A stretch of DNA of 64,000 bases, from positions 4,061 to 68,060 of the forward strand of contig JAZQPJ010000034.1 in NCBI GenBank assembly GCA_045628525.1, in the 5' to 3' direction. Shown here one piece after another: positions 3,740 through 55,469 of the stretch. Within the stretch, counting starts at the first letter, position 1; each line of letters opens with the position of its first letter. This stretch comes from Bacteroidales bacterium (GTDB lineage Bacteria; Bacteroidota; Bacteroidia; Bacteroidales; UBA3663). The notes beneath the pieces are model-generated. The model saw only the letters and a list, made by a program, of their open reading frames with translations. It ran no database searches and was not told the DNA's origin. The position numbers were made by a program, and so were the translations under genes.

Positions 3740-3758
3740 AGTTCCATGTTTGTGGGTG

Positions 3759-3913: not shown

Positions 3914-3921
3914 TACCTTTG
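3914..3921 (+). promoter_or_regulatory. -7 promoter box (TACCTTTG) upstream of the toxin-antitoxin pair
   Basis: Matches TAnnTTTG about 60 nt upstream of ATG 3984. Confidence 0.4.
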
Positions 3922-3983
3922 CACTCAAATGGTCGCGAAGAACAAAAGCGACACTCATAACAATCGAACAAAATCATACTACT

Positions 3984-4223: not shown

Positions 4224-4226
4224 TCC

Positions 4227-4499: not shown

Positions 4500-4527
4500 T
4501 TGCTCAAAGTGGTACATCTTTTTTATT

Positions 4528-4565
4528 AGGCCCTGCCTCCCAAGAACATCCAGGAGGCAGGGCCT
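4528..4565. terminator. Convergent-gene hairpin (13-bp perfect stem AGGCCCTGCCTCC/GGAGGCAGGGCCT)
   Basis: Lies between the yafQ stop and the nptA stop. There is no canonical U-tract on either side. Confidence 0.5.
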
Positions 4566-4570
4566 TAATA

Positions 4571-6253
4571 TTACTTGTTCACAGCAGCTTCTGCCTGCAC
4601 CACATTGATCGCATAGTCGCCTATCTTCTCGCATTCGGCAATGAAGTCGTTGAAGAAGGCGCCGAGGCGGTAGCTGTACTTGCCCTCGTTCACGGCGATG
4701 AGGTTCTCCTCGCGGCTGATGGTGCGCAGGGAGTTGATCTCGTTTTCTGCCTCGATGTTGTCGCGCAGATTGATTACCACGTGTTCAGGGTCGGTGATCA
4801 CCTGACGCATCTCATGCAGGGCGCGCTCGGTGAGGTCGAGCATCTGGGTCATCTGCATCTTCTGGTAGTCGGTGAAGTCGCTCGGCTCATTCTCACGCTT
4901 GCGCTGCAGGGTACGGCCGAGGTGGAACATCGAGTCTCCGATCGACTCCAGCTCGTCCACCTGTCGCAGCATCTGGGCGATGTGGTTCTTCGAGTAAGCC
5001 GAGAGCCTGCCCTCCGACACCTTGCGCAGGTAGCCGGCAATCTCCACCTCCATGTTGTCGGTGATCTGCTCGTAGTGTTCCAGTCGCTTGTATTCCTCGG
5101 CAAAGTCGCTCTCCTTCTTGGCCGAAAGGGCGCGGTTCACCATGTCGAGCATCTTCTGGCAACGCTCGGCCATGACACCCACCTCGTTGCGTGCCTGCAG
5201 GATGGAGAGCTCGGCCGTAGAGAGCAAGCCGCCGCTGATGTAGCGCAGACGTGTCTCCTCCTGCGTCTCCTTCTGAGGCAGCACGCGGCACACCAGCTGC
5301 TCAATCTGCTTGACGAAGCCAATCAATAACAAGGTGTTGAATACGTTGAATGCCGTGTGGAAGGCCGAGAGCTTGAAGAGGTCGTTGTTGCCAGCGCCCA
5401 TCACATGCTCCACGAACCATGACACGCCGTTGCAGAACGGATAGAACATCAGGAGCACCACCACCACGCCGAACACATTGAAGAACATGTGCGCGAGTGC
5501 CGCGCGTCGTGCCTGCGTGTTGGCGGTCAGGGAGGCGATGAATGCCGTGATCGTCGTACCGATGTTCTGACCCATGGCCAAAGCCGCTGCCTGCTCAAGG
5601 CCGAAGCCGGGGATCTGCATGTCGAACAGCATCAACGTGATGGCCATCGTGGCGGCCGATGCCTGAACGAGCATGGTAACCAATGCACCCACTACCACGA
5701 AAAGCAAGATTGTGAGGAAACCGCCATCGGCCACGCCTGCCAGCATCTGTGCCACCAGTTCGCCGATGTTCAGATCGGTGGCCGATTGCTGCAGGAAACT
5801 CAAGCCCATGAACAGGAACGAGAAGCCGAAGATGAACTCGCCGATCGACTTGCGATGCGAATTGCTGCTGAAGATGAGCGGAATGCCAAAGGCAAGCAAC
5901 GGCAACGCCAGGGCGGCGATATTGACCTTGAAACCGACAGCCGAGATGATCCATGCCGTCACCGTGGTGCCCACATTGGCACCCATGATCACGCCGATGG
6001 CTTGTGCCAGCGTCATCAATCCGGCATTGACAAACGAAACGACCATCACCGTGGTGGCCGAAGAGGATTGGATCAAGGCGGTCACGGCAATGCCCGTGAG
6101 AACACCCATCACACGATTGCGCGTCATGGCAGCCAGGATGCTGCGCAGACGATCGCCAGCAAATTTCTCAAGACCCTCGCTCATCGTCTTCATGCCGAAG
6201 AGGAAGAGTGCCAGGGATCCGATCAGGGAGAGGAGATTCAGAATTGTATCCAT
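4571..6253 (-). CDS. Na+/phosphate cotransporter family protein (NptA/YjbB type) with a C-terminal PhoU-like helical domain
   Basis: Duplicated Na_Pi_cotrans motifs (QSSSATTVMVVSF, GANVGTTVTAW; GQNIGTTITAF) and a long helical C-terminal half. Confidence 0.9.
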   Translation of the reverse strand: MDTILNLLSLIGSLALFLFGMKTMSEGLEKFAGDRLRSILAAMTRNRVMGVLTGIAVTALIQSSSATTVMVVSFVNAGLMTLAQAIGVIMGANVGTTVTAWIISAVGFKVNIAALALPLLAFGIPLIFSSNSHRKSIGEFIFGFSFLFMGLSFLQQSATDLNIGELVAQMLAGVADGGFLTILLFVVVGALVTMLVQASAATMAITLMLFDMQIPGFGLEQAAALAMGQNIGTTITAFIASLTANTQARRAALAHMFFNVFGVVVVLLMFYPFCNGVSWFVEHVMGAGNNDLFKLSAFHTAFNVFNTLLLIGFVKQIEQLVCRVLPQKETQEETRLRYISGGLLSTAELSILQARNEVGVMAERCQKMLDMVNRALSAKKESDFAEEYKRLEHYEQITDNMEVEIAGYLRKVSEGRLSAYSKNHIAQMLRQVDELESIGDSMFHLGRTLQRKRENEPSDFTDYQKMQMTQMLDLTERALHEMRQVITDPEHVVINLRDNIEAENEINSLRTISREENLIAVNEGKYSYRLGAFFNDFIAECEKIGDYAINVVQAEAAVNK

Positions 6254-6255
6254 AT

Positions 6256-6302
6256 TTTCAAATTACAGATTACAGATTTCAGATTACGAATTACAAATTA
6301 CG
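6256..6302. repeat. Heptamer tandem repeat (GTAATYT/GAAATCT x6-7 on the gene strand) filling the 5' leader of nptA
   Basis: The gene strand reads CGTAATTTGTAATTCGTAATCTGAAATCTGTAATCTGTAATTTGAAAAT-ATG. The 18-mer at 6256-6273 is identical to 57896-57913. Confidence 0.85.
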
Positions 6303-6314
6303 TTATTGACGCTG

Positions 6315-6322
6315 CAAAGATA
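6315..6322 (-). promoter_or_regulatory. -7 promoter box (TATCTTTG) for nptA
   Basis: Matches TAnnTTTG, which places the heptamer repeats in the transcribed leader. Confidence 0.5.
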
Positions 6323-6424
6323 TTACAACAATGTTACAATTTTATGACAAATGCTAAAAAAATGCGCAAATACCCTATTATTAGATCTTATAGTGGTCGT
6401 TTTTGTCTGTCCTCCTCAAAAAAA

Positions 6425-6552
6425 AGTTGAATGGATTAGACGTTAACTTCAGCCCTAGTTGAATGCTTTTAGGCATAACTCCGACAAGAGTTGAATGATT
6501 ATCTCTTAACTCCAAAACCTATTGAGTTCAGCCTTGTCTGGCCTGTTCAACT
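6425..6552. repeat. Three direct repeats in exact 32-bp register (AGTTGAATG-N9/10-TAACTYC) plus a degenerate fourth unit
   Basis: Units start at 6425, 6457 and 6489. The fourth (6521) ends in GTTCAACT, an inverted copy of the AGTTGAA core. Confidence 0.7.
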
Positions 6553-6846
6553 AAATCCAGAGTTTGTTGTTGCGTGGAGGGGGAGAGTATGAAACGATAT
6601 CTGTGAAATGATATGGATAGTATTGGTTTGATATAGTTTATATTTCATGCGGGCGTTTTTAGGTGTTTTGTTTGGGATTTGTCGTGACGACACGTCCCTT
6701 TTTCAATTTCATAATGTCTTGCGTTCTGGATAGATTTGACGATTACAAATGTGAAGAAATGCAATGTTTCTACTTGTTTAGGATGTACAAACCCAAATAT
6801 TTTTATGATTTATTTGATTTTATTTGTAACCGCAAATTATTTTGCG

Positions 6847-6854
6847 TATATTTG
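6847..6854 (+). promoter_or_regulatory. -7 promoter box (TATATTTG) for the DUF3791/DUF3990 module
   Basis: Matches TAnnTTTG about 40 nt upstream of ATG 6896. Confidence 0.45.
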
Positions 6855-6895
6855 CACCGTGATAATGTCGAATCATTAGATTAGTGTGAAGTAAT

Positions 6896-7114
6896 ATGTC
6901 AAAGCAAGAACAAGATAAGTCATATTTCGTTGCTTTCTGCATTGAGCAGTATAAGGCAGCAAAGGGAATGGACGGTGCAGACGTGGCGCAGCTGTTCTTC
7001 CAAAAAGGCGTGGCATCGTACCTCGCTGATAACTTTGATGTGCTTCATACTCAAAGCCGACAGTGGCTTATGGAGGAGATCGATGAATATCTGGAACAAA
7101 ACGAAGAGAAGTAA
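6896..7114 (+). CDS. DUF3791-family small helical protein
   Basis: 72 aa with the family-typical FVAFCIEQYK...YLADNFDVLHTQ. Its stop lies 1 nt before the next start. Confidence 0.75.
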   Translation: MSKQEQDKSYFVAFCIEQYKAAKGMDGADVAQLFFQKGVASYLADNFDVLHTQSRQWLMEEIDEYLEQNEEK

Positions 7115-7115
7115 A

Positions 7116-14874: not shown

Positions 14875-15160
14875 TGCAATAGTCCGACTTGGATCTGAGT
14901 CGGACTATTGCAGATCTGCAAAAGCATGTCGCAAGACAGAATATGTAATTGTAAATCTGCAGCAGTCCGACCTGGATCCAAGTCGGACTGCTGCGGCTCT
15001 TCAATAGTCCGACTTGATACCGTGTCGGACTGTCGCGCGTTTGCAATAGTCCGACTTGGTACCGTGTCGGACTGTCGCACGTTTGCAATAGTCCGACTTG
15101 GGTTCAGGTCGGACTGTCGCGCGTTTGCATTAGTCCGACTTGGGTTCAGGTCGGACTTTT
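14875..15160. repeat. Array of six palindromic units (AGTCCGAC-N10-GTCGGACT); the last four are in exact 42-bp register
   Basis: Left half-sites at 14881, 14964, 15006, 15048, 15090 and 15132. A conserved 16-bp linker GTCGCRCGTTTGCAAT separates units; the first two stems extend to 13-14 bp. Confidence 0.9.
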
Positions 15161-31593: not shown

Positions 31594-31662
31594 AAATTGT
31601 GCCTGCACAAATTGTCTGTCCGAGATGTTGACAGAGAATTGTGCAGGCACAATTTTTTTTTT
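31594..31662 (+). terminator. Rho-independent terminator with a long perfect stem
   Basis: TTGTGCCTGCACAA ... TTGTGCAGGCACAA followed by T10. Confidence 0.8.
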
Positions 31663-31672
31663 GTTCTAAGTT

Positions 31673-32719
31673 TTATCTGCGGCCGCCACGTTCACCATGG
31701 CTTCCACCACCGTGGTTGCCGTGGTTGTTGCCGTTGCCTTCGCTACGGTTGCCATGGCTACCTGATGAACGCTCGTGTGAGCGGGTTCCTCCATTGGCTC
31801 GTTGCTCGTGCGAATGAGCGGCCTGGTTTGAACGCTGATCGTGAGAACGGTTGGCAGAAGAGCGTTCCGATGAACGATGCTGCTTTTCAGGGCGGATATT
31901 GCCTTGGTTGCCATGTTTGTTGTTGCCACCTTGGCCAGCATTGCCATGGTTACCGTGGTTGTTTCCGCCGCCTTGACCGGCATTGCCATGGTCGTTGTGA
32001 CCGCCGTTGCTGTGGTCGTTGCGGTTGCCATGACCACCATTGTTGTGACCGCCGTTGCCATGGTTGTTGTTGTGGCCACCAGGACGTGCGTCGTGGTTGT
32101 TGTGTCCGTTGCTGTTATGATGGCCACCATGATCGCGGTGATGGTAACGATTGCCAAAATCGTTGTGACGATGGGTTTCGTAATGAGGACCGCGGAGGAT
32201 AGGAGCGGGGACAGCGTGATGTGGGTGGCTGTAACGATTCACGTAGAAGCCGCCATGATGATGGTGGTGGCTGTGCAGGCCGTGGTAGGTATGATAGCAG
32301 TTGGGCAAACCATAATAGTAATAGTGATGGTTGTGATATACATCATAGATGCGGAATGCCCAGCGACGTGCTGTGGTGTAGATTGGACGGAAGAAATAGT
32401 CCAAACCCATGAAGATGCCGTACTGTGTAGCGTTGAGGATGTAACGCAGATCCTCGTTGCGGTAGTCGAGATAGTCGTAGTATGTGTCGATGGCATCAGA
32501 GTAGCCATACACTACATCGTCCATCAGGTTATTTGCCTCGTAGATGAAGTCGTAGTTGACCTCAAAGCAGTCTTCGTACTGAGCAGGGGTGAGCTGCAAC
32601 TCGTAAGCCATGCGGTCGGTGAGGAAACGTGCTGTCTCACGAATGCGTGCATCGCTCATTGCCATTACGCTCATCAGGGTGAGCAGCGGCAGGGCCAGGG
32701 TTAGAAAAAGTCTTTTCAT
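31673..32719 (-). CDS. Secreted protein with a conserved Tyr-rich N-terminal domain and a very long His/Asn/Gly-rich tail (paralog of 15256-16047)
   Basis: Signal peptide MKRLFLTLALPLLTLMSVMA. The N-terminal domain is homologous to the 15256 product. The tail is full of HGN/HNN/GGH repeats. Confidence 0.8.
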   Translation of the reverse strand: MKRLFLTLALPLLTLMSVMAMSDARIRETARFLTDRMAYELQLTPAQYEDCFEVNYDFIYEANNLMDDVVYGYSDAIDTYYDYLDYRNEDLRYILNATQYGIFMGLDYFFRPIYTTARRWAFRIYDVYHNHHYYYYGLPNCYHTYHGLHSHHHHHGGFYVNRYSHPHHAVPAPILRGPHYETHRHNDFGNRYHHRDHGGHHNSNGHNNHDARPGGHNNNHGNGGHNNGGHGNRNDHSNGGHNDHGNAGQGGGNNHGNHGNAGQGGNNKHGNQGNIRPEKQHRSSERSSANRSHDQRSNQAAHSHEQRANGGTRSHERSSGSHGNRSEGNGNNHGNHGGGSHGERGGRR

Positions 32720-37145: not shown

Positions 37146-39098
37146 TCAAAAGATGGATGGTTCGACAAACATGCGCTTGCCAGCGAACCCGTCTAATTGT
37201 TGCAAGCTAAGTCCGAGTCGGAAATGCAACATCTGTAGATGTGAATCGTCGCGTGCAGTGAGGTGTTGACCCAGTGCATCGTTTTCAGGTGCAATCAGTA
37301 TGTACGAATCCTGACCGCCGTCATCCTTTATCATGAGGTTGAGGGTGGTTTCTTTTTTTAGTTCCTCTATGAACTGGCTCAGTCCGCCATGTCCCTCGTA
37401 AAGTTGCGTCAACCTGTCTGCAATTGTCACATCAAGCACGGCAGGCAGCGTACCATCCTGTATTCTGTGATTGAGGTATTGGTCGATTTTGGCAGAGAAC
37501 TTGGTACGAAGACGCTGAAGCAGATCCTCTCCATCAAGAATAGGGCTCTTGCCATAAAGACATTCAACAAGTTGCAGATATTGAACAGTAAGGTGTTCAC
37601 GATCGAGTGCAATGGCCTGTGCTGCCTGATGAATCGGTTCAATGGGGAAAATACCGCATAGCGATGCAGGTTCGCTCTCGGTCAGACTACGCTTTGTGGC
37701 GAGTATGGCATCGTAGCAGTAGGCTGTAAGCCGATCGCTGCCATCCGACAGAGCCGCTACCTGAGGAATCAGCTCGTTAAGCAGTTTGTTGGCAAACGTG
37801 CATCCAGGTATCAGTGTGCGCTGTTCGAAGAAATTCTGCAGCAGCGCTTTGTATTGACTCAGCAAAACCTGATTCTTGCCACGCAGACGATCGAACAGTC
37901 CGAGGTTGTTCCATTGATTGGTGAGCGCATCTAATTCAGCCTGGATTGATTTGACCTGTTGCTGTGACTGCTGCAGAATCTGGTTGATTTCAAGCACCTT
38001 CTGCTGCAATCGGTTCACGATGGCGTGCACAATATCCTTGAGCACTGAGGGTGGGTAAGGAGATTGCAACATCGTCTTGTGCAAGCCGTCGCTAATGATT
38101 GCCAGCAGTATGCGGTTGTAGTCGGCTGTCTTCTTGAACTCAAGATTGAAGAAGAACTCTACACCCAGCTCTCGGAAACGACTTTGGAACAATACCTCAA
38201 CACGGTTGCGCATCTGTCTGAACCATTCTTCACGCGGCAAGTCATTCATGCCTTGGCAGGACAGGTCGATTGATTGCTGCCAATAGTTGGATGGCACGTC
38301 CCATGTCTGGTCGGAGTCGGGATTCAGATTGATGAACATTTCCTCCTGCAGGCAAACCCGCATATTCGAGAGGGGCACCTGAGCGAGAATAGAATCCGCT
38401 TCCTCGTTGCACACTTCCATTTCTACAGGATTGTCTTTCACCTGTGTCAATGTCAGCAAAGCATTCAGATATGCCTGATGCAGGTGGTAGCGCACTTCGT
38501 CGTCGGGATAGCTGATGCCCGTTGCATTGAACGTGGCAAAAACTGGTGGGAAGTCGCAAGCATCGCCTAAAGGAATATATATTTTTTGCTCAATGACCGG
38601 ATTCTGGGTTACATTGAACAAGAACTGGGAGAGGCTGACCTGCGTTGCATCTGTGTATAGAAAACAGGTTTGCAGAAGTTGTATGTCGAGATAGTCTGTA
38701 ACGGCATTGTTGATGCATGCCAGACTCTTCCATGCACCGTTTCGCTCCTTGTCTGAGCAATGATTCAGATCGGGAAGCTGGCAATAGCAGAAATTATGAT
38801 AGGCGTATTTCTCGGAGACAGCAAAATTCTTGCGGATCAATGTAAGCGTCTGAACGATCATCGACCCGACGTCCACATGATCGAGTGTAGCACATATATG
38901 GAAAGAGATGTCGCTTGGGTTTTCTTCCTTGCGGCGCAATTCATTGACTTCATGCAGCAACTCACGTTCCTCCAGCTGCTTGCTGAGGAACAACAATGTT
39001 GCATTGCGCGAAACCAAAGAGGTGGTTGCAAACTGCCTGTACACGGGGTTTTGTATGCGTGACTGGCAGTAATTGAGGAAGATGATCAGATGCTTCAT
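37146..39098 (-). CDS. Large hypothetical protein (650 aa) with a central Gln-rich coiled coil, translationally coupled to tdk
   Basis: A long uninterrupted ORF whose ATG overlaps the tdk stop (TAATG). I saw no P-loop or other recognisable catalytic motif. Confidence 0.7.
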   Translation of the reverse strand: MKHLIIFLNYCQSRIQNPVYRQFATTSLVSRNATLLFLSKQLEERELLHEVNELRRKEENPSDISFHICATLDHVDVGSMIVQTLTLIRKNFAVSEKYAYHNFCYCQLPDLNHCSDKERNGAWKSLACINNAVTDYLDIQLLQTCFLYTDATQVSLSQFLFNVTQNPVIEQKIYIPLGDACDFPPVFATFNATGISYPDDEVRYHLHQAYLNALLTLTQVKDNPVEMEVCNEEADSILAQVPLSNMRVCLQEEMFINLNPDSDQTWDVPSNYWQQSIDLSCQGMNDLPREEWFRQMRNRVEVLFQSRFRELGVEFFFNLEFKKTADYNRILLAIISDGLHKTMLQSPYPPSVLKDIVHAIVNRLQQKVLEINQILQQSQQQVKSIQAELDALTNQWNNLGLFDRLRGKNQVLLSQYKALLQNFFEQRTLIPGCTFANKLLNELIPQVAALSDGSDRLTAYCYDAILATKRSLTESEPASLCGIFPIEPIHQAAQAIALDREHLTVQYLQLVECLYGKSPILDGEDLLQRLRTKFSAKIDQYLNHRIQDGTLPAVLDVTIADRLTQLYEGHGGLSQFIEELKKETTLNLMIKDDGGQDSYILIAPENDALGQHLTARDDSHLQMLHFRLGLSLQQLDGFAGKRMFVEPSIF

Positions 39099-39697
39099 TA
39101 CTTTCTATTCTTGTCTTTCATCATTTCATGGTAGCAGGCACGACACAGTGGCATGTATTCCTGCTTTTCACCAATCAGCACCTGATCCACACCTTTGGCG
39201 ATGCGATAGGAATAATTGGCAAGGTGTCCGCACTTCATGCAGATGGCACGACACTTGTACACATCATCGGCAATGGCCATCAGTTCGGGCATGGGGCCGA
39301 AAGGTTGACCAAGGTAGTCCATGTCAAGACCAGCCAGGATGACTCTTTTGCCGGAAGAAGCCAGAGCATTAACAACCTTGACCAGTTCGGCATCGAAGAA
39401 CTGTGCCTCGTCGATAGCCACTACGTCAACGTCGTCGGTCACGGTGTTGGCAATGACCTGAGCAGACTGTACAGGAATGGCTTCACTGCTGCTGTGTGTA
39501 TGTGAGACGATGTCGCGCTCGCTGTATCGGTAATCGAGCGATGGTTTGAATATCATGATATTGCGTTTGGCAATCTTGACGCGATTGATTCGGCGGATCA
39601 ACTCTTCGGTTTTGCCTGAGAACATTGATCCACAGATTACTTCAATACATCCGGTGGAACGATAGGAGTTTGCGGGAAAACTGTTTTCGAAATACAT
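39098..39697 (-). CDS. tdk: Thymidine kinase
   Basis: P-loop GSMFSGKTEELI and C-terminal zinc-ribbon cysteines CMKCG...CRAC. Confidence 0.95.
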   Translation of the reverse strand: MYFENSFPANSYRSTGCIEVICGSMFSGKTEELIRRINRVKIAKRNIMIFKPSLDYRYSERDIVSHTHSSSEAIPVQSAQVIANTVTDDVDVVAIDEAQFFDAELVKVVNALASSGKRVILAGLDMDYLGQPFGPMPELMAIADDVYKCRAICMKCGHLANYSYRIAKGVDQVLIGEKQEYMPLCRACYHEMMKDKNRK

Positions 39698-39737
39698 AAT
39701 ATTATGTTTTATTGTTGATTATTCAATTTTTAGAAGG

Positions 39738-39975
39738 GTTCTTCGATTCGAGACGTCGAAAAGCATGTCCGGAATCTTGGCGAAGGAATTCGAGTTGTCG
39801 AATAGTTTGTCCGGACCTTGTGACAAGGAATTCGAGCCGTCGAAAAGGCTGTCTGGATTCTTGGACAAGGAATTCGAGCCGTCGAAGAGCCTATCCGAAA
39901 CCTCAGACAAAGATTTCGAGCCGTCGAAAAGCATGTCATAGAACTCTGGCAAAGATTTCGAGACGTCGAACTCTA
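39738..39975. repeat. Tandem array of about 5.6 units in exact 42-bp register (ATTCGAGCCGTCGAAAAGSMTGTCYGGAWYCTTGGMCAAGGA)
   Basis: TTCGAG anchors at 39747, 39789, 39831, 39873, 39915 and 39957. Each unit carries TTCGA-N4-TCGAA and CCTTG/CAAGG mini-palindromes. Confidence 0.9.
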
Positions 39976-39977
39976 TT

Positions 39978-41684
39978 TTATCGTTCTTCAGATGCTGTTA
40001 CTACATTGATGATGTAGTCACCGATCTTTTCGCATTCATTGATGAGCATCATGAAAAACGTACTTTGCTGATATTGCACCTCGTTGCGGTCAAATTGATC
40101 CAATACGGAGTTACGATATTGATTGCGGAAGTTGTTGATCTCGTCCTCGATGTTGAATGCTTTGTTCAGAGCGCTTGACGTCACTTCGTCCATGTCCATC
40201 AGCTTGAGCATGTGCTGCAAGGCATCGTCGGTGAGAGCGAACATCTTGTTTACATTCGTGTTGAGCTCAGGACTGAAGCGTACCCGTTGCTCGCTCTTGC
40301 TGTACAAGGTGGCAGACAGGTGATAGATGGAATCGGCAATGGATTCAAGTTCATCGACGATCTTGTACAGATTGCGACACAACTGCTCACCTTGCCCAGA
40401 CAGCGATTTAGGTGAGATCTTGTTGAGGAAGTCCGCAATTTCCATCTCTGCCCGATCGCTTTCCTGCTCCATCGTCCGCACTTGGTCATCGATCTGCAAC
40501 TGACGCTCAGAACCAAGCGGTTCGGACAACATCTCACGAACAAGCGAGAACATGATATAGACATTCTCACCATATCTTGTCGCTTCTTTCTGCACTTGAG
40601 CCAAAGCCATTTCGCTTGATGAAATGATGCCAGAGGTGATGAATTGCAGCTTGAATGACTGTTCGGAGTCGGGTTCTGTCTCTGGCGTGTTCCTGGAAAC
40701 AAGGCGTACAAACTGATGACGCAAAGGCAACAACAAGAGCATCGTCACGACATTGAAAGCTGTATGGAAAAGGGCCAGACCGGCTGGCATGTTTTCCTGA
40801 AGGTTCGGATTGCCTAAGCCGATGCTTTCGCAGCAATAGGCAATCGTGGATTCTCCGTCTGCCAGTTTTCCATTGAAAATAAAATACAAGCCAAGCATCA
40901 GCAGGAGCACCCAAAGCATTCCAATAAAATTAAATAGGAAATGTAACAGGGCTGCACGTCGTGCCATGGCATTGGCCTTTCGTGCTGCAATCAATGGAGG
41001 TATGCAAGTGCCGATATTGGCCAATACGATGAGTGCGCAGCCAAGATCGAACGATATCCATTCAGACACACACAGCAGTAGGGCGATGAGGAAGGTGATG
41101 GTTGACGAACGGAACAGAACGGTTAGCAGCAATCCGCTCAGCAAGACAACTGATACCGACAATACATACAGATATCCCTCTCCATCGAGCCCCTGGGGCA
41201 ACCACGTACCATCCATCTGGTGGAATGAAACCTGCATGAAGTGGATGCTAATGACCAGAAGTGCTATGCCAATGATCAGTTCACCCCATGAGACAGACGA
41301 TCCCTTGCGGAATCCGAAGAGCGGAATCGTTATGGCAACCAGCGGAAAAGCCCAGAGATAAGCGTCGAAATTGAAGCACAGGAGCGCAATGAGCCAGGCG
41401 GTGATGGTTGTGCCGATGTTGGCACCCATGATGACAGATGCTGATTGCGAAAGCGTGATCAATCCGGCGTTGGTGAACGAAACCGCCATCATGGTTACAG
41501 CAGTTGATGACTGAACCAGAGCGGTGACACCAAGGCCGGTGAACATACCTGTCAGGGCATTGCCTGTCATGGCTGATTGCGCATGACGCAGCACATCACC
41601 CGCAATCTTTTGCAGATTGTCGCTGATGAGCTGCATGGCAAACAGGAAGAGGCCAATGGAGCCGATGAGGGTCAGTAGTGTCAT
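39978..41684 (-). CDS. Na+/phosphate cotransporter family protein (second copy) with a C-terminal PhoU-like domain
   Basis: QSSTAVTMMAVSF and GANIGTTITAW motifs, and the same architecture as 4571-6253. Confidence 0.9.
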   Translation of the reverse strand: MTLLTLIGSIGLFLFAMQLISDNLQKIAGDVLRHAQSAMTGNALTGMFTGLGVTALVQSSTAVTMMAVSFTNAGLITLSQSASVIMGANIGTTITAWLIALLCFNFDAYLWAFPLVAITIPLFGFRKGSSVSWGELIIGIALLVISIHFMQVSFHQMDGTWLPQGLDGEGYLYVLSVSVVLLSGLLLTVLFRSSTITFLIALLLCVSEWISFDLGCALIVLANIGTCIPPLIAARKANAMARRAALLHFLFNFIGMLWVLLLMLGLYFIFNGKLADGESTIAYCCESIGLGNPNLQENMPAGLALFHTAFNVVTMLLLLPLRHQFVRLVSRNTPETEPDSEQSFKLQFITSGIISSSEMALAQVQKEATRYGENVYIMFSLVREMLSEPLGSERQLQIDDQVRTMEQESDRAEMEIADFLNKISPKSLSGQGEQLCRNLYKIVDELESIADSIYHLSATLYSKSEQRVRFSPELNTNVNKMFALTDDALQHMLKLMDMDEVTSSALNKAFNIEDEINNFRNQYRNSVLDQFDRNEVQYQQSTFFMMLINECEKIGDYIINVVTASEER

Positions 41685-42403
41685 CGCAGGTTATTGATTG
41701 AAGTTTCAAATGATTCGCGGTATGTCTTTCCCATGGGGACTTCCTCGCCCGAAGTGAGCAGGACCGACTGGGTATTGTAGCTGCACACGTGTTTCAATCC
41801 CACTATATAGGAGCGTTGCACACGGGCAAATCGTGCGCTTGGCAATTGTTGCTCGAAGCTGCTGAGCGTGCCGAGTGTCGTAAGCTTGCGACCATCAGAG
41901 AGGACGAGCTGGGTGTAGTCCTTGAACGCTTCGAGACATACGATGTCAGCAACACGGATCATCTCAGTACGGCCTTCGCTGCGAATGCCAATCATCTGAT
42001 CTGCTGATGCTGCGTCCTGTGTCCTTTCGATTTCATGATGCACTTTCGATAGCGCTTGCTTCAGTCTGTCCAGCGTATATGGTTTCAGCAGATAGTCCGT
42101 GACACCATAATTAAATCCGTCGATGGCATACTGATCGTAGGCAGAGGTAATGATGATGGCTGTGCGTCCTGCATCTTTGTTATCTTTGGTATTCTGCAGG
42201 GATTTCAGGAACTCCAGGCCAGTAAGATTGGGCATCTGGATATCAAGGAATATCAAATCGGGGAGCCCCTCTTCTCTGATCGCAGTCTGAAGCTTACTTC
42301 CATCGCCGAAGGTCGAGATGTCTCCACCTTCACCGGCTTTCTCAAGGAAAAGCTTGAGTTTGGCGGCTGCCAATGGTTCGTCTTCGGCAATGTAGATTCT
42401 CAT
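41681..42403 (-). CDS. LytTR-family response regulator (receiver + LytTR DNA-binding domain)
   Basis: MRIYIAEDEPLA...FLDIQMPNLTG receiver and a C-terminal LytTR region. Its stop overlaps the nptA start (ATGA). Confidence 0.9.
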   Translation of the reverse strand: MRIYIAEDEPLAAAKLKLFLEKAGEGGDISTFGDGSKLQTAIREEGLPDLIFLDIQMPNLTGLEFLKSLQNTKDNKDAGRTAIIITSAYDQYAIDGFNYGVTDYLLKPYTLDRLKQALSKVHHEIERTQDAASADQMIGIRSEGRTEMIRVADIVCLEAFKDYTQLVLSDGRKLTTLGTLSSFEQQLPSARFARVQRSYIVGLKHVCSYNTQSVLLTSGEEVPMGKTYRESFETSINNLR

Positions 42404-42437: not shown

Positions 42438-43451
42438 TTAATTAAGTGCGGTCAGTATCTTGTCAGCCACAGTCTCTGGTGTCAAGCCGCTCATACAGCG
42501 ATAGTCGCCAAACTTGCAAGGCTTGTTGCCATAGATGGAGCAAGGACGGCAGGGGAGGGGCAGCTCGATGCAGTCAGAAGGCTGTTGTCCGTAGCCCAGG
42601 AATCCGGCATACTGATGTGTGGCTCCCCAGATGGAGAAGCAGCGTGTTCCGACAAGAGAAGCCAGATGCATATTGGCCGAGTCCATCGAAACCATGGCAC
42701 GCAGACATGACATGGTGCGCAGGTCAGCATCAATGAACTGAGCTCCGGCCAGATTGTGTATGCGGTCAGGGTTGTCTTGTCTCCACAATTCGAGTTCTGC
42801 AGCCTCTTCCTTGCTGCCAAACAGATAAATGTGCAGGTCGGGACGCTTTTGCAACATGAGACGGATTGCCTGCCGCATCTGGGCTATCGGATAAATCTTG
42901 CCTTGATGTTGAGCAAAGGGGGCGATACCGATTGAGGTCGGGGAGACATCTCTGTCTGTCCCTGCTAATAGTAGTCCGACCTTTCGGCCATCGTAATCAA
43001 CCTCAAAAGGATAACCAAGTTCTGCAAAGACAGCCCGATAACGTTCGATGCCACTGGTCAATTGCTTGAAGTCCTGATGGGCGGTGAGTGACTTTTTGTC
43101 CTTGCGTCCCTTGTCGATTACGCTTACCTTCTTTCCTGCCAACTTGAAGCGGATACGTACCCACTTGGTTCGCAACACATCGTGCAGATCAGCCACAACA
43201 TCAAAATGCTGCTCCCGTAACTCATTATAGAGTTTGTTCATACCCGACAGACCATTGTAGTCGTTCTTGTTGATGGCAAGACACTTGAAGTTGGGCAGAT
43301 GGATGACAGTATTGGCGACCTTGGCGCCAATCTTGCTGGTGAGCAAGGTCAGCTCCACATCTGGATAGGTGCGGCAGAACGAATCAAGCACGGGCAACGT
43401 CATACAGATGTCGCCCAATGCACTCAAGCGGATGGCAAGGATCTTAGTCAT
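42438..43451 (-). CDS. Glycosyltransferase family 9 (LPS heptosyltransferase-like)
   Basis: ILAIRLSALGD N-terminus, the GT9 C-terminal SMDSANMHLA motif and a terminal CRPC...C cluster. Confidence 0.85.
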   Translation of the reverse strand: MTKILAIRLSALGDICMTLPVLDSFCRTYPDVELTLLTSKIGAKVANTVIHLPNFKCLAINKNDYNGLSGMNKLYNELREQHFDVVADLHDVLRTKWVRIRFKLAGKKVSVIDKGRKDKKSLTAHQDFKQLTSGIERYRAVFAELGYPFEVDYDGRKVGLLLAGTDRDVSPTSIGIAPFAQHQGKIYPIAQMRQAIRLMLQKRPDLHIYLFGSKEEAAELELWRQDNPDRIHNLAGAQFIDADLRTMSCLRAMVSMDSANMHLASLVGTRCFSIWGATHQYAGFLGYGQQPSDCIELPLPCRPCSIYGNKPCKFGDYRCMSGLTPETVADKILTALN

Positions 43452-44060
43452 TTATTTCGTGTTGGCGTAGAGCACAGGATTGAGGTTCGGATCGTTGTAC
43501 ATCTTCATCTGCTTATACACTTTCATGTACTTGCGGCCTGCTGCTATATCGTCGAGCAGCTGGCTGATGGCGGTGGTCAGATCCTCATGCTGTGTGAGCA
43601 GCACGTTGAGCTTCTGCTGGCACTTGTCATGATGCTCCTGGCTTACGTCGGTGCGATCCACTTCTACCTGCATGTGATAGATCTTCAGATAAAGGATCGA
43701 CAGGCGGTCAATGGCCCATGCTGGTGATTCTGTGTTGATGGTGGCATCAGGCAACACGTTTACCTCCTTGTATGTATCCAGGAAGTAGGAATCGATCATC
43801 TCTACCAAGTCGGTACGGTCCTGGTTCGATTTGTCAATACGACGCTTCAAGACCAAAGCGGCAGCCGGATCAATTTCCGGGTCACGGATGATGTCTTCGA
43901 AGTGCCACTGTACAGTATCGATCCAATTCTTCAGATAGAGATAGAACTCGATAGTGCCCTGCTGGAAGGGATTCTGGATGGGAGTGTCAACGTTGTCAGT
44001 CTTGTGATAGTCGGCAATCGACTGCTTGAAGATGCCGTCACATAGTTCAGTAAATTTCAT
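43452..44060 (-). CDS. DUF4254-family protein
   Basis: About 200 aa directly abutting the GT9 gene, a pairing typical of Bacteroidetes. The start was set at MKFTELC downstream of a -7 box. Confidence 0.7.
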   Translation of the reverse strand: MKFTELCDGIFKQSIADYHKTDNVDTPIQNPFQQGTIEFYLYLKNWIDTVQWHFEDIIRDPEIDPAAALVLKRRIDKSNQDRTDLVEMIDSYFLDTYKEVNVLPDATINTESPAWAIDRLSILYLKIYHMQVEVDRTDVSQEHHDKCQQKLNVLLTQHEDLTTAISQLLDDIAAGRKYMKVYKQMKMYNDPNLNPVLYANTK

Positions 44061-44092
44061 ATTTATATTTAATGTTAATTTCAAAATTGCTG

Positions 44093-44100
44093 CAAAGATA
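44093..44100 (-). promoter_or_regulatory. -7 promoter box (TATCTTTG) for the DUF4254-GT9 unit
   Basis: Matches TAnnTTTG about 33 nt upstream of ATG 44060. Confidence 0.5.
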
Positions 44101-44143
44101 GTTATTTTTTTCCAAAAAAAGTACAACTTTGCCAAAAATTCTT

Positions 44144-50866: not shown

Positions 50867-50949
50867 ATATTATGTTTCAAAAATGAAACAAAGACTACGA
50901 TTTTTGATACCATTTATCACATGTGCACGTATGTTACATAATAACTTAT

Positions 50950-50957
50950 TATCTTTG
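50950..50957 (+). promoter_or_regulatory. -7 promoter box (TATCTTTG) for the GH9 gene
   Basis: Matches TAnnTTTG about 47 nt upstream of ATG 51004. Confidence 0.5.
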
Positions 50958-51003
50958 CAGCGTTGTTTCACATACTCTCATTCATCAAAATATATCAAAT
51001 CTT

Positions 51004-53550
51004 ATGAAAAAACAACTATTCCTAACCCTCGCCGCTGGCTTCCTGCTTGCTTCGTGCAGCGGAAACAAGACTGGCGAACAGGCATTGATGCTGAATGACC
51101 TCGACTATTTCGAGGAGCAGGGCGTGAACGTGCTGGTCTATAGCAACGACTTCAACGGCGGCTTCAATGACGAGAAGAACTCGGGCATCGAGCTCATTCA
51201 CCACGGCGTTCGTACCGTGCAGGGTGGTGCCGTGCGTCTGAACAAGACCCCCGAGCAGTGGGACCTCGTTCCCAAAACCACCAACCGCGTGGTGAATCAT
51301 GAGGACAACTCCATCGAGGTGAGCCTCCGTTACGAAGACTACGATTTCGATTCGCGCGTCGTCGTTACCGGCAAGGGCAAGGCTGTGGAGATTGCCGTCT
51401 ATCTGGACAAGCCCGTGCCAGAGCAGTTGGTGGGCGATGCAGGTTTCAACCTGGAGTTCCTGCCATCGCAGTACTGGGCCAAGACCTACATGATGGATGG
51501 CCGCCTGAACCGCTTCCCACGCATCGCAGCCAGCGAGACCGTCACCCGTCCCAACTCGGAGAAAGCCAAGCAGTTCAAGGGCTTCAAGACCTACGACGAC
51601 CGCGGCACCGACCGCTTCATCGATCCGCTTCCACTCGAGACCGGCCACACCATCCTCATGGCACAGGACGCTCCTGAGCGCATGATCAAGGTCACCAGCG
51701 AGGATGCCGAACTCAAGCTCTACGACGGCCGCATGCTCGCTCAGAACGGCTGGTTTGTGCTCCGTTCTGAGCTCCCGGCAGGCAAGACCGGCAAGGTCAT
51801 CACCTGGACCCTTGAGCCAAACGCCATTCAGGGCTGGGTGCGCGAGCCGAACATCGGCTTCTCACAGGTAGGCTATCTGCCCGAGCAGCCGAAGGTGGCT
51901 GTCATCGAGCTCGACAAGGTCGATCAGCCACGCTCTACCGCCAGCGTCCATCGCGTGATGCCCGACGGCTCTGTAAAGCAGGCTTATAGCGGCAAGACCA
52001 CCACCTGGGGCCGTTACTTCAAGTATAACTATGTGAAGTTCGACTTCTCGGAGGTTACCGAGCCAGGCGTTTACTACATCCAGTATGGCGACACCAAGAC
52101 CAACAACTTCATCATCGACAAGACCGTCTATGACAAGATTACCGATGCAACCAGCGACGTCTGGATCCCAATCCACATGAACCACATGACCGTCAACGAG
52201 GGCTATCGCATCTGGCACGGCGAGCCATTCAAGGAGGGCTACCTCCAGGCTCCTGAGTCTGACCACTTCGACCTCCACTGGCAGAAGCAGTCCGACACCA
52301 AGTACAAGCCATACCAGCTCATCCCAGGCCTGAACGTAGGTGGCTTCTTCGATGCCGGCGACTACGACATCGAGACCGGTTCGAACATCTCCGTTGTGCA
52401 GAACTTCGTATCTGCCTGGGAGCTCTTCCACTCAGAGCGCGACGAGACCTTCGTCAGCCAGGAGCAGCGCTACGTTGACCTGCATCGTCCAGACGGCAAG
52501 CCAGACCTCCTGCAGTTCATCGAGCACGGCACCCTCAACCTTGTGACCCAGGCTGAGGTCATCGGCCACATGTCGCAGACCTTGTCGAACGGTGTACTCG
52601 ACAACTATCACCACCTCGGCGACATCTCGGCCATTACCGATGGTCTGCATTATGACCCATCGCTCAAGCCATACGAGAAGTCAGCCGACGGCAAGCGCAG
52701 CGGCACCAACGACGACCTCTGGGCATTCACCACACGCAATCCTCAGCTTGACTTCCGCGGCGCCACCATGCTCGCAGCTGCCAGCCGTGCGCTTGAGGGT
52801 TACAACGATGCCCTTGCCAAGCGTGCCCTCGTGCAGTCGAAGCGTCTCATGGCCGAGGCTACCGAGCTCATGAAGAAGAACGGTCGCGTGGACAACGAGC
52901 GCGACAGCCTGGCACGTGCTGGCTTCGGCAACATGGCCACCAACCTCCAGCTCTTTGCCGCCACCGGTGAGCAGCAGTACCTTGAAGCCTTCGAGGGCCA
53001 GATCTGGAAGGCTCTCGACCGCAACGTCGAAGCCTCGATCAAGGTGGCACTCGACGGCATCCCATACATGAACGATGCCTATCGCGAGAAGCTCCGTCCA
53101 TACGTCGAGAAGTTCAACGAGAGCATCAAGGCCCTTGAGGAGGACAATCCTTATGGTGTGCCCATCGGCCTCGGCAACTGGGCAGGCAGCACACAGGTTG
53201 CCACCTGGGGTACCACCGTCTGCTTCGCTTCGAAGTATTATCCTGACATTGTGAGCAAGAACGAGGCCTACAAGGCTGCAGCCTGGATCTTCGGCTGTCA
53301 CCCATATCACAACTACTCACTCGTTGCCGCCGTGGGTGCAGCCCGTCCAAAGGCTGTATTCTATGGCAACAACCGCGCCGACTTCTCGTTCATTCCAGGC
53401 AACATGGCACCAGGCCTCCTGTTCCGCAAGCCTGACCACTTCGAGAACTACGACGATTGGCCGTTCCTTTGGGGTCAGAACGAGGGCACCATCGCTGGCA
53501 ATACCCTCTACCTGATCTTCGGTTCTGCTTTCAAGGACCTTGAGAAGTAA
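51004..53550 (+). CDS. Glycoside hydrolase family 9 lipoprotein (N-terminal Ig-like domain + GH9 catalytic domain)
   Basis: Lipobox LLASCSG and the GH9 signature GGFFDAGDYD. The start was set at MKKQLF. Confidence 0.85.
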   Translation: MKKQLFLTLAAGFLLASCSGNKTGEQALMLNDLDYFEEQGVNVLVYSNDFNGGFNDEKNSGIELIHHGVRTVQGGAVRLNKTPEQWDLVPKTTNRVVNHEDNSIEVSLRYEDYDFDSRVVVTGKGKAVEIAVYLDKPVPEQLVGDAGFNLEFLPSQYWAKTYMMDGRLNRFPRIAASETVTRPNSEKAKQFKGFKTYDDRGTDRFIDPLPLETGHTILMAQDAPERMIKVTSEDAELKLYDGRMLAQNGWFVLRSELPAGKTGKVITWTLEPNAIQGWVREPNIGFSQVGYLPEQPKVAVIELDKVDQPRSTASVHRVMPDGSVKQAYSGKTTTWGRYFKYNYVKFDFSEVTEPGVYYIQYGDTKTNNFIIDKTVYDKITDATSDVWIPIHMNHMTVNEGYRIWHGEPFKEGYLQAPESDHFDLHWQKQSDTKYKPYQLIPGLNVGGFFDAGDYDIETGSNISVVQNFVSAWELFHSERDETFVSQEQRYVDLHRPDGKPDLLQFIEHGTLNLVTQAEVIGHMSQTLSNGVLDNYHHLGDISAITDGLHYDPSLKPYEKSADGKRSGTNDDLWAFTTRNPQLDFRGATMLAAASRALEGYNDALAKRALVQSKRLMAEATELMKKNGRVDNERDSLARAGFGNMATNLQLFAATGEQQYLEAFEGQIWKALDRNVEASIKVALDGIPYMNDAYREKLRPYVEKFNESIKALEEDNPYGVPIGLGNWAGSTQVATWGTTVCFASKYYPDIVSKNEAYKAAAWIFGCHPYHNYSLVAAVGAARPKAVFYGNNRADFSFIPGNMAPGLLFRKPDHFENYDDWPFLWGQNEGTIAGNTLYLIFGSAFKDLEK

Positions 53551-53611
53551 TTTGCACCTTTGCTGAAAGTCAAAGAGTTGCAAAAACATTTGTTGCAATC
53601 AAAAAATATTT

Positions 53612-53640
53612 GCGCCCGGCACAAAAAATGTGTCGGGCGC
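53612..53640 (+). terminator. Hairpin terminator after the GH9 gene
   Basis: GCGCCCGGCACA-AAAAA-TGTGTCGGGCGC (one G-U pair), followed by GTTTCGTT. Confidence 0.6.
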
Positions 53641-53652
53641 GTTTCGTTCAGT

Positions 53653-54090
53653 AGCGGTGGCATGTCGAAAGAGATGGAAAAAGCGCTGAAAATGTGCTGA
53701 AAGTTCGCAAATCCATTAGGAATGCCTCTGCAAGTGTGCGGAAGGGCGGAAAATGATTTTTTGCGGCTCAGCAGATCTGCGGAGGGTTTCCAAAAGTTTT
53801 TTTTGCGGCTCCGCACGTTTGCGAAAGCTCTACAAAAAGTTTTTCTGTGACTCTGCAAATCTGCGGAAGCTCTCCAAAAGTTTTTCCAAGGCTCAGCAAA
53901 CTGTCGGAGCTCAGAAAATGTTTTAGCGAAGGTTTTGCAGGTTTGCAGAGGCATTCCTAAAGATTTTGTGTCCGCTCCGCATGTTTGCATCACCTTTTCG
54001 ATGCGATTTGCAGATTCAGTGCGAGCTCGCATCACCTTTTCGATGCGATTTGCAGATTCAATGCAAGTTCGCGTCACTTTTCCTGATGCT
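53653..54090. repeat. Degenerate tandem array of about 10 units holding a 40-42-bp register; the last 2.5 units are near-identical (GCATCACCTTTTCGATGCGATTTGCAGATTCARTGCRAGYTC)
   Basis: Unit anchors at 53695, 53737, 53778, 53820, 53862, 53904, 53944 and 53986/53987, then 54029 and 54071. The final unit runs into the 3' end of the DUF2851 gene. Confidence 0.8.
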
Positions 54091-55387
54091 TGATGAGCCA
54101 GCAGCCAAGTCGGCAATGGAGGCATTTATGAGGCTGGCAATAGTTTTGCGACAGGTGGAGGAGTGCCTGCGTGTCGAGGGCCGACCGTGCAGGGATGCCG
54201 GCCTCAATCCATTGGGTAATGAAGCGGTTCGATTCGGCTGGGAGCTGTTCGAGCAGGGCGAGCGCCTGTTCTGCACGTTCGTCGTCGCCCTGCCAGCGGT
54301 GGTAGGAGAGGAGCGTAGGCACGACGGCGTTGATCAGCACGATCTGGACCGTCTGCTTGCCGATGCCCTTGACCGAGAAGATGCGTTGCAGCTCGTCGAG
54401 CGACTTGGCTTCGAGCGTCTCGCTCAGCAGGTTGGGATGCGTCCAGATGAGGGCGGCAAACGCATCGAGTCGGCATTGTGGCGTGGCTTGTGGACGCAGT
54501 CGGCTCATGCGCCAGGCTGTCGGGTCGATGGGTGTGAGGCTGAATTTGTTGCGAAGGAAGTTGTATTCCTGCTCCAGTTGTCGGCCTTCGGGGGTGGTGA
54601 AGTCGATGAGCCCTGCCTGACCGAGCAGCATGGCGCGCAGCTGGAAGAGGTTGTCGCGATGGTGCAGCAGGCAGCTGTATGGGAGGCTGCGGGCAAGGCG
54701 CTCCATGGCATCGCTGTTGGTGCCCGAGCCGAGGCTACGGAGCAGGATGGTGTAGAAGGCCTCTTCCCACGACTTCATGTCGGTCTGAACCACCTGTTGC
54801 ACACGTTGCATCTTGCCCAACATGCGCTGGATGGCCAGGGCGTTGATCCAGTCGTGCAGGACGATGGCGGGAACCTCGGTGACGCGTGGGCGGCAGTACA
54901 GGAGGGAGCCCGGAGTGAAGGGGGAGGGGTTGCCGGGAATCAGGGGCTTCGTAGCAGATGCCGGCGAAACTGCGTCAACGGAGACAGACTCTGGTGAAAG
55001 AGGGTCAACAGCCGAGGTGCCGGCAGGGACGCAGAGCGCATAGTAGCGGCGCATCACGTCGTTGGGAATGTGCATCACCACGGTCTTGAGTTCGGTGCCA
55101 TCGTGCAGGTGGATCTGCGCATCGGCCTGAAGCACGACGTGGAGGATCACGGAATCGTAGGCGCGGTTGTCCTGATGATGGTGGCGGTACCAGTCGGAAG
55201 CCTTGACGTGCATCTCCACGTTGCCCGCCCAGGTCACGCCGTCGTAGCGCACCTTGGCGTTGAAGAAGTCAGGGCCGACCTCATGGTTGCGAAGGCCGGG
55301 ATGAATGACCTCGAGCGGCTGTCCGTCGAGTGTCACGATGCTATTGAACAGGCGTTGCTGCCACACGAAATACATGAGCTCCTCCAT
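54074..55387 (-). CDS. DUF2851-family protein
   Basis: Starts MEELMYFVWQQRLF... and has HPGLRN..GPDF and VEMHVKASDWYRHHH. The start was set at ATG 55387 downstream of a -7 box. Confidence 0.8.
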   Translation of the reverse strand: MEELMYFVWQQRLFNSIVTLDGQPLEVIHPGLRNHEVGPDFFNAKVRYDGVTWAGNVEMHVKASDWYRHHHQDNRAYDSVILHVVLQADAQIHLHDGTELKTVVMHIPNDVMRRYYALCVPAGTSAVDPLSPESVSVDAVSPASATKPLIPGNPSPFTPGSLLYCRPRVTEVPAIVLHDWINALAIQRMLGKMQRVQQVVQTDMKSWEEAFYTILLRSLGSGTNSDAMERLARSLPYSCLLHHRDNLFQLRAMLLGQAGLIDFTTPEGRQLEQEYNFLRNKFSLTPIDPTAWRMSRLRPQATPQCRLDAFAALIWTHPNLLSETLEAKSLDELQRIFSVKGIGKQTVQIVLINAVVPTLLSYHRWQGDDERAEQALALLEQLPAESNRFITQWIEAGIPARSALDTQALLHLSQNYCQPHKCLHCRLGCWLIKHQEK

Positions 55388-55469
55388 GCTGTTTCTGGTG
55401 CTTGTGATGTTGGTTTCGACTGCTCCATTCCTTGCCATTTTGCGCAAAAAACGGAGCATTAGGATGGGG

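Follow-up and report, generated by a model that had tools for sequence, protein, structure and literature searches.

In a 64,000-nucleotide stretch of DNA from a Bacteroidales bacterium (assembly GCA_045628525.1, contig JAZQPJ010000034.1, positions 4,061 to 68,060; hereafter, the window), we identified a tandem array of 42-bp units located between nptA-2, which encodes a Na/Pi cotransporter-PhoU fusion, and the thymidine kinase gene tdk. From comparative analysis, the functional part of the unit appears to be a 14-nt palindrome, TTCGA-CNNC-TCGAA, the sequence of which has been kept by selection in two species and which would probably serve as a docking site in regulation, and the array as a whole reads as a neutral scaffold of linkers carrying short palindromes under purifying selection. 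We hold with high confidence that this element is non-coding, selectively maintained and cis-acting, and that it belongs to no described family.

The existence of a real 42-bp tandem repeat between nptA-2 and tdk is confirmed. Tandem Repeats Finder (TRF) reports 39746-39970 as 5.4 copies of a 42-bp period with 71-77% matches, 84 being an equally good higher-order period, and lag 42 is the top-enriched repeat lag across the whole window. Read in register on the minus strand, from 39970 to 39747, the array consists of five 42-bp units and a terminal sixth core, which refines the about 5.6 units of the original prediction while leaving its tandem nature intact. The motif TTCGACNNCTCGAA (minus strand; TTCGAG... 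on the plus strand) recurs at 39747, 39789, 39831, 39873, 39915 and 39957, exactly 42 bp apart, so that the six anchors listed previously are borne out by pattern match, TRF and lag alike; no further perfect match to this motif is present elsewhere in the 64-kb window. Likewise, the pattern TTCGA-N4-TCGAA occurs six times in the window, always within the array, against 0.11 occurrences expected from dinucleotide shuffles.

Following the nptA stop codon on the minus strand, a 7-nt flank read as AATAGAG (39971-39977) leads into unit 1 (39929-39970, with core TTCGACGTCTCGAA at 39970-39957), unit 2 (39887-39928, core TTCGACGGCTCGAA at 39928-39915), unit 3 (39845-39886, core at 39886-39873), unit 4 (39803-39844, core at 39844-39831) and unit 5 (39761-39802, core TTCGACAACTCGAA at 39802-39789). 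The terminal sixth core (39747-39760), which has no linker after it, is identical to the first, both being TTCGACGTCTCGAA, and an A-rich leader of 49 nt (39698-39746), alignable in its 3' part with the tdk leader of two relatives (loci L011 and L092), separates it from the tdk start. Consequently, the margins given earlier (3 bp from the stop codon and 40 bp from the tdk ATG) are corrected to 7 nt after the nptA stop and 49 nt before the tdk ATG. Two mini-palindromes had also been assigned to each unit. TTCGA-N4-TCGAA is present in all six cores, but TCYTGG-N-CAAGGA forms a good palindrome in unit 4 alone, where the linker contains the one clean copy, CCTTG-TCA-CAAGG, and an approximate one in two other units; TGTC/GACA pairing within the linker fares no better than in shuffled sequence. 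Conservation does not extend to the second mini-palindrome.

Two other interpretations of the repeat were considered. A CRISPR array was rejected, since the units are contiguous and the stretches between cores are homologous (62% identity) rather than unique spacers. In relation to a restriction-modification idea, no avoidance of TCGA was detected in the window (430 observed vs 434 expected under a Markov model).

Selection on the arms was assessed against a sister species (locus L010, nptA 83% identical), in which four cores are located at 1818, 1860, 1901 and 1942 and the array is no longer detected by TRF. Between the two species, four-fold degenerate sites of nptA and tdk are 47-53% identical, which is near saturation, and the 28-bp linkers are 47% identical; among the L010 units, the linkers share 43% identity, so that they are indistinguishable from neutral sequence. 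The ten arm positions of the palindrome, on the other hand, are 95% identical between the species (P = 7e-10 for 38 or more matches out of 40 at p = 0.5). Linker identity inside the window reaches 62%, which points to some homogenisation or more recent duplication. Variation among strains could be followed in five sequences whose tdk product is identical (the window, L001, L002, L003 and L005). The strain comparison of copy number suggested in the original prediction gave the same unit number in all five, and what differs among them lies chiefly in the linkers and the central CNNC of each core, the arms being spared; in L002, the unit-3 linker has been converted to unit-5 sequence.

The open reading frames (ORFs) that cross the array in several frames had previously been regarded as artefacts of its period, and Pfam searches, the protein collection, and the strain and sister-species comparisons all agree with that view. 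Most decisively, the spacings of 42, 41 and 41 bp in L010 break every 14-aa frame, the FDGSxSLSK frame lasting only two units, which shows that the array is non-coding. Moreover, the 77-aa, 69-aa and 101-aa ORFs have no Pfam match, their three products are absent from a collection of ~15 billion predicted proteins, and gene callers did not call ORFs across the array on the five strain-level contigs. In the 77-aa frame, strain-level substitutions are mostly non-synonymous, and the earliest start codon available to this ORF comes only after the array has begun, with none before unit 1. A protein-coding role would require a 14-aa-repeat protein (the 77-aa or 69-aa ORF), read-through or frameshifting that lengthens NptA at its C-terminus, or a relay ORF coupling translation to tdk in the style of MIRUs (interspersed repetitive units of mycobacteria). 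In its favor, 42 is divisible by three, most of the array is open in every minus frame and in one plus frame, and gene calling placed an ORF on a 42-bp array of the relative L095. Nevertheless, besides the evidence above, the frame continuing from nptA reaches a stop after 13 codons, and the ORF ends at 39719 and 39730 fall 22-33 nt short of the tdk ATG, with no overlap with the tdk start and hence no overlap coupling; we consider a coding function extremely improbable.

All genes flanking the array are on the minus strand, and they probably form the operon DUF4254-GT9-LytTR-nptA-tdk-650aa. The likely first gene encodes a DUF4254 protein (43452 to ~44060; assigned by Pfam and called as 202 aa on the strain contigs), and is followed by a GT9 glycosyltransferase gene (42438-43451; Pfam), the two together being assigned to 42438-44135, and by that of a response regulator with a LytTR DNA-binding domain (41681-42403; Pfam Response_reg and LytTR), the stop of which overlaps the nptA start by 4 nt. 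Then come nptA-2 itself (39978-41684; Pfam Na_Pi_cotrans 1.3e-43 and PhoU 4.5e-09; TAA at 39980-39978), with a C-terminus that ends at the same position in relatives, tdk (39098-39697; Pfam TK 7.5e-53; ATG at 39697), and a gene for a 650-aa protein without Pfam match (37146-39098), syntenic in relatives, whose start overlaps the tdk stop. The nptA-tdk gap, of 280 bp, is the sole large gap in this gene string. Thymidine kinase genes, for their part, are common counter-selection markers in Bacteroides genetics.

The Bacteroidetes -7 box (TAnnTTTG) has only two perfect minus-strand matches here, at 44216 and 44100, both upstream of DUF4254. The box at 44100 (TATCTTTG, 44093-44100), located ~33 nt upstream of the DUF4254 ATG and kept with its surroundings in L011 and L092, is the likely operon promoter, and from 44065 down to 39000 no perfect TAnnTTTG occurs on the minus strand. 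As candidates for an internal promoter, only one-mismatch -7-like boxes (AATCTTTG) were present in units 1 and 2; these lack the conserved T, are absent in L010, and were rejected. Furthermore, no terminator-like site (GC-rich stem followed by a U-tract) was detected in 39698-39977. Since the spacer has neither a promoter nor a terminator motif, tdk is likely co-transcribed with nptA across the array. The original prediction had found no -7 box for tdk and had placed the array as an intercistronic element within a LytTR-nptA-tdk-orphan operon; the junction indeed has no perfect box, and both the intercistronic reading and the gene order are upheld, whereas the operon probably begins two genes earlier, at DUF4254-GT9.

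With regard to the origin of the array, the order LytTR-nptA-tdk-650aa is kept in seven relatives, and in four of them the nptA-tdk junction measures only 14-54 bp: 42 bp in L007 (nptA identity 57%), 24 bp in L008 (Candidatus Liminaster caballi; 51%), 14 bp in L009 (46%) and 54 bp in L093 (58%). A search of genome contigs had yielded three distant relatives, and metagenome homologues, with identities of 39% or less, were used as background only. Because distant relatives with the same gene order have short junctions, the array is a lineage-specific expansion within a formerly short (~50 nt) nptA-tdk spacer. In L011 and L092 (nptA 62% and 60% identical), a different, unrelated insert of ~190 bp occupies the junction (11675-11866 and 5675-5866, respectively). 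It includes one palindrome resembling TTCGCTAGTTCGAA, ~28 nt ahead of the tdk ATG, which may be related to the core amplified in the window. The two ends of the L011 insert are complementary to each other over a long range, GGTTTGAGGTCG...CGACCTCCGAACC, and L092 has diverged counterparts where it aligns with them. Structured insertions seem to favor the nptA-tdk junction as a hot spot.

Outside this junction, the element was not recovered. The search for the unit consensus, which had been proposed together with the strain comparison, gave no other copy in the window or in 1.1 Mb of loci, and the matches of a unit profile (nhmmer) were confined to L010, the strain contigs and, within the window, this locus. 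Similarly, the two-core pattern had no match in viral contigs, and the core none in ~1 Mb of other Bacteroidetes loci.

At the RNA level, Rfam gave no match at the gathering score in the window, where the only hit below threshold was SraG, at chance level (18 bits vs a 50-bit cutoff, E = 0.99), and nothing in L010 and L092. In a structure alignment of 13 units, the core helix (columns 1-5 with 10-14) is paired in 97% of cells, and no covariation was detected in it, with no change on both sides in any of the units; on the sense RNA, the two arm substitutions observed result in C-A mismatches, and the one insertion in an arm results in a bulge. RNAalifold predicts only the core stem, without covariation, and the local hairpin is weak (-2.6 kcal/mol for the consensus and -3.0 to -3.8 kcal/mol for single units). 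Given arms that are conserved without covariation and a weak local hairpin, the evidence favors a recognised palindromic sequence rather than a simple structural stem.

In this context, we propose that a dimeric factor able to read the palindrome would recognise the array as six phased sites, with a phasing of 41-42 bp corresponding to about four helical turns, and that occupied sites would tune the level of expression carried over from nptA to tdk and the 650-aa gene, most likely in the form of a DNA-bound roadblock or operator array. Such a DNA-level platform for a predicted dimeric factor is suggested by arm sequences conserved without compensatory change, by the weakness of the hairpin, and by the 41-42 bp phasing, and we advance it tentatively, as possible rather than probable. 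Several observations weigh against it. None of the genes adjoining the array encodes a candidate palindrome-binding protein, and the 64-kb window contains no further single TTCGA-N4-TCGAA, an uncommon situation for a transcription-factor regulon; operator arrays are seldom found within operons, and intercistronic palindromic repeats are classically RNA-level elements. The array is carried by two species only, which is a small comparative sample, and the conservation of the 42, 41, 41 spacing is not clearly above what rare indels would leave. In addition, when the whole spacer is folded, a single long nested hairpin arises from pairing between cores (1 with 5 and 2 with 4, core 3 pairing locally), with -75 kcal/mol and z = -2.5 to -3.2 on the sense strand (z = -1.4 on the antisense strand), and multi-partner pairing of this kind could freeze the arm sequence without any protein.

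The latter points lead to a close second, almost as plausible, in which the array would work in the RNA as a structured untranslated spacer, comparable to REP/BIME, BOX or Correia elements, serving as a processing site (e.g., for RNase III), a barrier to 3'-exonucleases, or a modulator of Rho and polarity, by which nptA would be uncoupled from tdk; with the first hairpin 4-7 nt past the stop codon, an effect on nptA translation termination could also be involved. This would suit the location of the array in a spacer that is presumably transcribed and lacks promoter and terminator, its position adjoining the stop codon in both species (7 nt in the window species and 4 nt in L010), a sense strand that folds better than shuffles and than its antisense, the stable hairpin units (-9 to -16 kcal/mol) of other arrays described below (arrays A and D, and that of L011/L092), and the different ~190-nt insert of L011 and L092 at the same junction. 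Against it stand the weak local hairpin (~-3 kcal/mol), arm changes that are neither compensatory nor wobble but disturb pairing, the lack of an Rfam match, and a constant period of 41-42 nt across unrelated arrays, which it leaves unaccounted for. A functionless minisatellite is unlikely by comparison. Here, a 42-bp segment would have been amplified by slippage or unequal crossing-over, possibly as what is left of an insertion resembling a MITE (a small transposable element with inverted repeats), and the array's absence from more distant relatives, which makes it dispensable for the operon, the gene conversion in L002, and the excess of unit identity within the species over that between species (62% vs 47%), as predicted by concerted evolution, agree with such a history, as do the alternative insert at the junction and the identical palindromic first and last cores, which make the ends of the array a 14-bp inverted repeat. 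However, neutral persistence cannot give arms that are 95% identical when neutral sites are at ~50% and linkers at the neutral level; copy number is equal in the five strain-level sequences, no other copy of the unit was found in the window, the 1.1 Mb of loci or viral contigs, and no target-site duplication was seen. Even less credible, and in our opinion very improbable, is that the array binds the LytTR regulator, whose gene is the second one upstream, with an autoregulatory or tdk-regulatory role. The regulator does belong to the same operon, LytTR proteins bind phased direct repeats, with known sites being 9-bp direct repeats ~21-22 bp apart, and long-period arrays in ~1 Mb of other Bacteroidetes loci cluster at 21-22 bp; yet the conserved element is a palindrome every 42 bp, a 21-bp sub-period is not significant (lag-21 of 0.36 vs a background of ~0.27), relatives keep LytTR-nptA-tdk without any array, and the site is downstream of nptA instead of at a promoter.

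Besides the nptA-tdk array (array B), the window contains three other intergenic 42-bp arrays, named A, C and D. Array A (14964-15157, 4.6 units of 42 bp, with an extra hairpin copy at 14881-14906, the whole feature covering 14880-15157) has a unit with an 8-bp perfect inverted repeat, AGTCCGAC-N10-GTCGGACT, folding at ~-16 kcal/mol, and its last hairpin is followed by TTTTGT, in a terminator-like arrangement. It is located directly 3' of a PHO4-family phosphate transporter gene (12578-14848), as B trails nptA-2, but the association with phosphate transporters is not generalisable, since array A is absent 3' of PHO4 in the relatives L094, L095 and L096. Arrays A and B share no recurrent k-mer. 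Arrays C (53757-53912) and D (53987-54082) have different units and lie between the convergent genes for GH9 (50923-53550) and DUF2851 (54074-55459); D has a clear hairpin-forming palindromic core, as in A, and C, by sequence reading, shows weaker partial palindromes only. Contig searches with genes beside A and C/D gave no match, probably owing to differences in the called starts. A TTTGC/TCTGC(A) motif is common to A, C and D and missing in B, and a spurious 205-aa ORF (53508-54125, minus strand) runs through C and D. A 42-bp periodicity, together with one of 24 bp, was also observed at 31595-32275 (TRF 31898-31992), inside an ORF on the minus strand (31673-32719) without Pfam match and of Gly/Asn/His-rich low complexity, which may be a coding counterpart of the 42-bp period. 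When the consensus units of A, B, C, D and this coding array were compared in rotated form and on two strands, no significant similarity was detected, except for a weak one between C and D (p = 0.03).

Among relatives, a 41-bp array, conserved from one species to the other, is present between the divergent topA and DUF4254 genes of L011 (7180-7394, 5.2 units) and L092 (1192-1379, 4.6 units), a position that in the window has ~100 bp and no array. Its unit has two hairpins, TTGTG-GACA-CACAA and TGCCAG-AAACG-CTGGCA, and the hairpin variants TGTCAG and CTGGTA would preserve G-U pairing on one strand only. In L095, where PHO4 is 90% identical, positions 1-142 hold a 42-bp array of at least 3.4 units, running to the end of the locus, whose unit has an imperfect palindrome (TCTGGAGGCCTTGAGA); a gene caller placed a 158-aa ORF across it. 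By contrast, in 0.98 Mb of distant Bacteroidetes (L012-L091), 14 of the 19 long-period arrays (period of at least 20 bp and at least 2.5 copies) have periods of 21-22 bp, one of 23 and one of 44, and none of 42; 21-22 bp correspond to two helical turns, and also to the classical LytTR spacing. In these distant Bacteroidetes, 29 of 293 TRF rows are within 400 bp of the stop of an nptA homologue, a proportion inseparable from the general enrichment of repeats in intergenic regions.

A clade-wide class of 'quantised' minisatellites to which array B would belong, together with A, C, D and the arrays of L011/L092 and L095, unrelated in sequence, each with its own palindromic core and all with a common period of 41-42 bp, may be conceived, albeit we regard it as doubtful. 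If true, it would denote a machinery or physical constraint that measures four helical turns, such as a DNA-wrapping or bridging protein taking any palindrome, or a specific amplification mechanism, and the two arrays that trail phosphate-transporter genes would raise a possible link to phosphate-gene regulation.

Array A lies just past a phosphate-gene neighbourhood (1684-14848), in which nptA-1, a porin O/P gene and PHO4 are accompanied by genes for an OmpR-type regulator and a PhoR-like histidine kinase (1684-3772). In the interval from porin to PHO4, L094 and L095 have both ppk and ppx, L096 has only ppx, and the window lacks the two genes; a block at ~6.9-11.1 kb (DUF3990, aspartyl protease, Schlafen/AlbA_2), with 34-41% GC, looks like an insertion. 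Heptamer repeats occur directly upstream of phosphate genes: (ATTACAG)n at 6256-6301 abuts the ATG of nptA-1 (4571-6253, minus strand), and two copies of TTTAATCGTAAATCG are found at 11419-11447, just before the phosphate-selective porin gene (11408-12538). Runs of similar type, ACAGATT and ATTACAG, are present at 12354-12376 and 13458-13483. Repeats of TTACAGATTTAAGA and CACAGATTTA were likewise observed just 3' of nptA homologues in the distant L029 and L081. The heptamer repeats by phosphate genes could be a Pho-box-like or leader element. Additional repeats in the window comprise runs of a 9-bp repeat (GTTCGAAGG and relatives) at 445-553 and 1397-1471, in a GH42/DUF5597 ORF (12-1634) with a weak collagen-like Pfam match, and a 33-bp repeat at 10750-10882 (3.7 copies, 95% identity) near the 3' end of the Schlafen/AlbA_2 ORF (9597-11081).

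Intercistronic repeats are usually dismissed as junk or generic hairpins, and the comparison presented here splits neutral linkers from a strongly selected palindrome. Hence, a concrete candidate for a cis-element becomes available in uncultured Bacteroidales of gut/rumen type, where regulation within operons is almost undescribed. With respect to the original prediction, the advance consists of the demonstration that the array is non-coding, the dating of its origin, and the selection on the 14-nt palindrome. Should a common reader or generator be behind the 42-bp period, an undescribed DNA-organising or repeat-generating activity would be involved; if there is none, this would be an ordinary minisatellite, still serving as a caution against the annotation of its ORFs and as a possible unit-number marker between species (six vs four cores).

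In comparison with known systems, the array has partial counterparts in several families of bacterial repeats, with MIRU, REP/BIME, BOX and BrickBuilt being closest in position and sopC of plasmid F in architecture. MIRUs were first found in the senX3-regX3 intercistronic region. They are tandem repeats placed in an operon between co-oriented genes, with ORFs through the repeats (PMC3184786, PMC12548453). The array resembles them as a tandem of ~40-100 bp units within an operon, traversed by open frames. However, MIRUs constitute one family at ~40-50 loci, while the array unit is found at a single locus in the sequence examined, and MIRU ORFs overlap the flanking stop and start codons, with coupling at -4 nt, whereas the ORFs of the array neither overlap tdk nor persist in L010.

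Repetitive extragenic palindromes (REPs) and the bacterial interspersed mosaic elements (BIMEs) that contain them are often located near stop codons, and act on mRNA stability or bind proteins. They have been described as extragenic palindromes in transcribed intercistronic or 3' regions (PMC3184786). Similarly, the array is extragenic within the presumed transcription unit, from the nptA stop to the tdk start. Nonetheless, REPs exist in hundreds of dispersed copies, while unit and core are seen only here in the 64-kb window and 1.1 Mb of loci; REPs are stable, GC-rich imperfect palindromes of ~35 bp, whereas the array has a 5-bp stem of -2.6 to -3.8 kcal/mol; and REPs alternate in orientation in BIMEs and are linked to the RAYT transposase, whereas the units of the array are head-to-tail.

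The boxB module of the BOX element comprises ~45 nt, is transcribed, is predicted to fold, and may modulate neighboring genes. BOX itself is an intergenic repeat of Streptococcus pneumoniae with tandem boxB modules (PMC3184786). It is dispersed, probably mobile, and bounded by boxA and boxC ends, and neither dispersal nor end modules were seen for the array. Within the Bacteroidales, BrickBuilt of Porphyromonas gingivalis is an intergenic spacerless minisatellite/MITE with a 23-nt unit in 19 dispersed copies, for which promoter activity has been shown (PMC4596501). As in BrickBuilt, we found a spacerless intergenic minisatellite with a possible influence on neighboring genes; unlike it, with its leader and tail modules and inverted-repeat ends, the array has a unit of 42 bp, no such modules or target duplication, a single locus, and no promoter motif.

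The sopC centromere of plasmid F offers almost the same architecture: its 43-bp direct repeats number 12, and the 16-bp inverted repeat within each is the binding site of a dimeric protein, SopB (PMC3177203). In both cases, a palindrome recurs once per about four helical turns in repeats of ~43 bp, the binding site of the array being putative. In contrast, sopC lies on a plasmid beside sopAB, and the array is chromosomal and within an operon; no ParA/ParB-type genes were detected among the scanned neighbors, which are transport, salvage and cell-envelope genes, and at least three further arrays with different palindromes are present in the same 64 kb. In brief, the array misses at least one defining feature of every family tested, and is a bacterial intergenic palindrome-bearing minisatellite.

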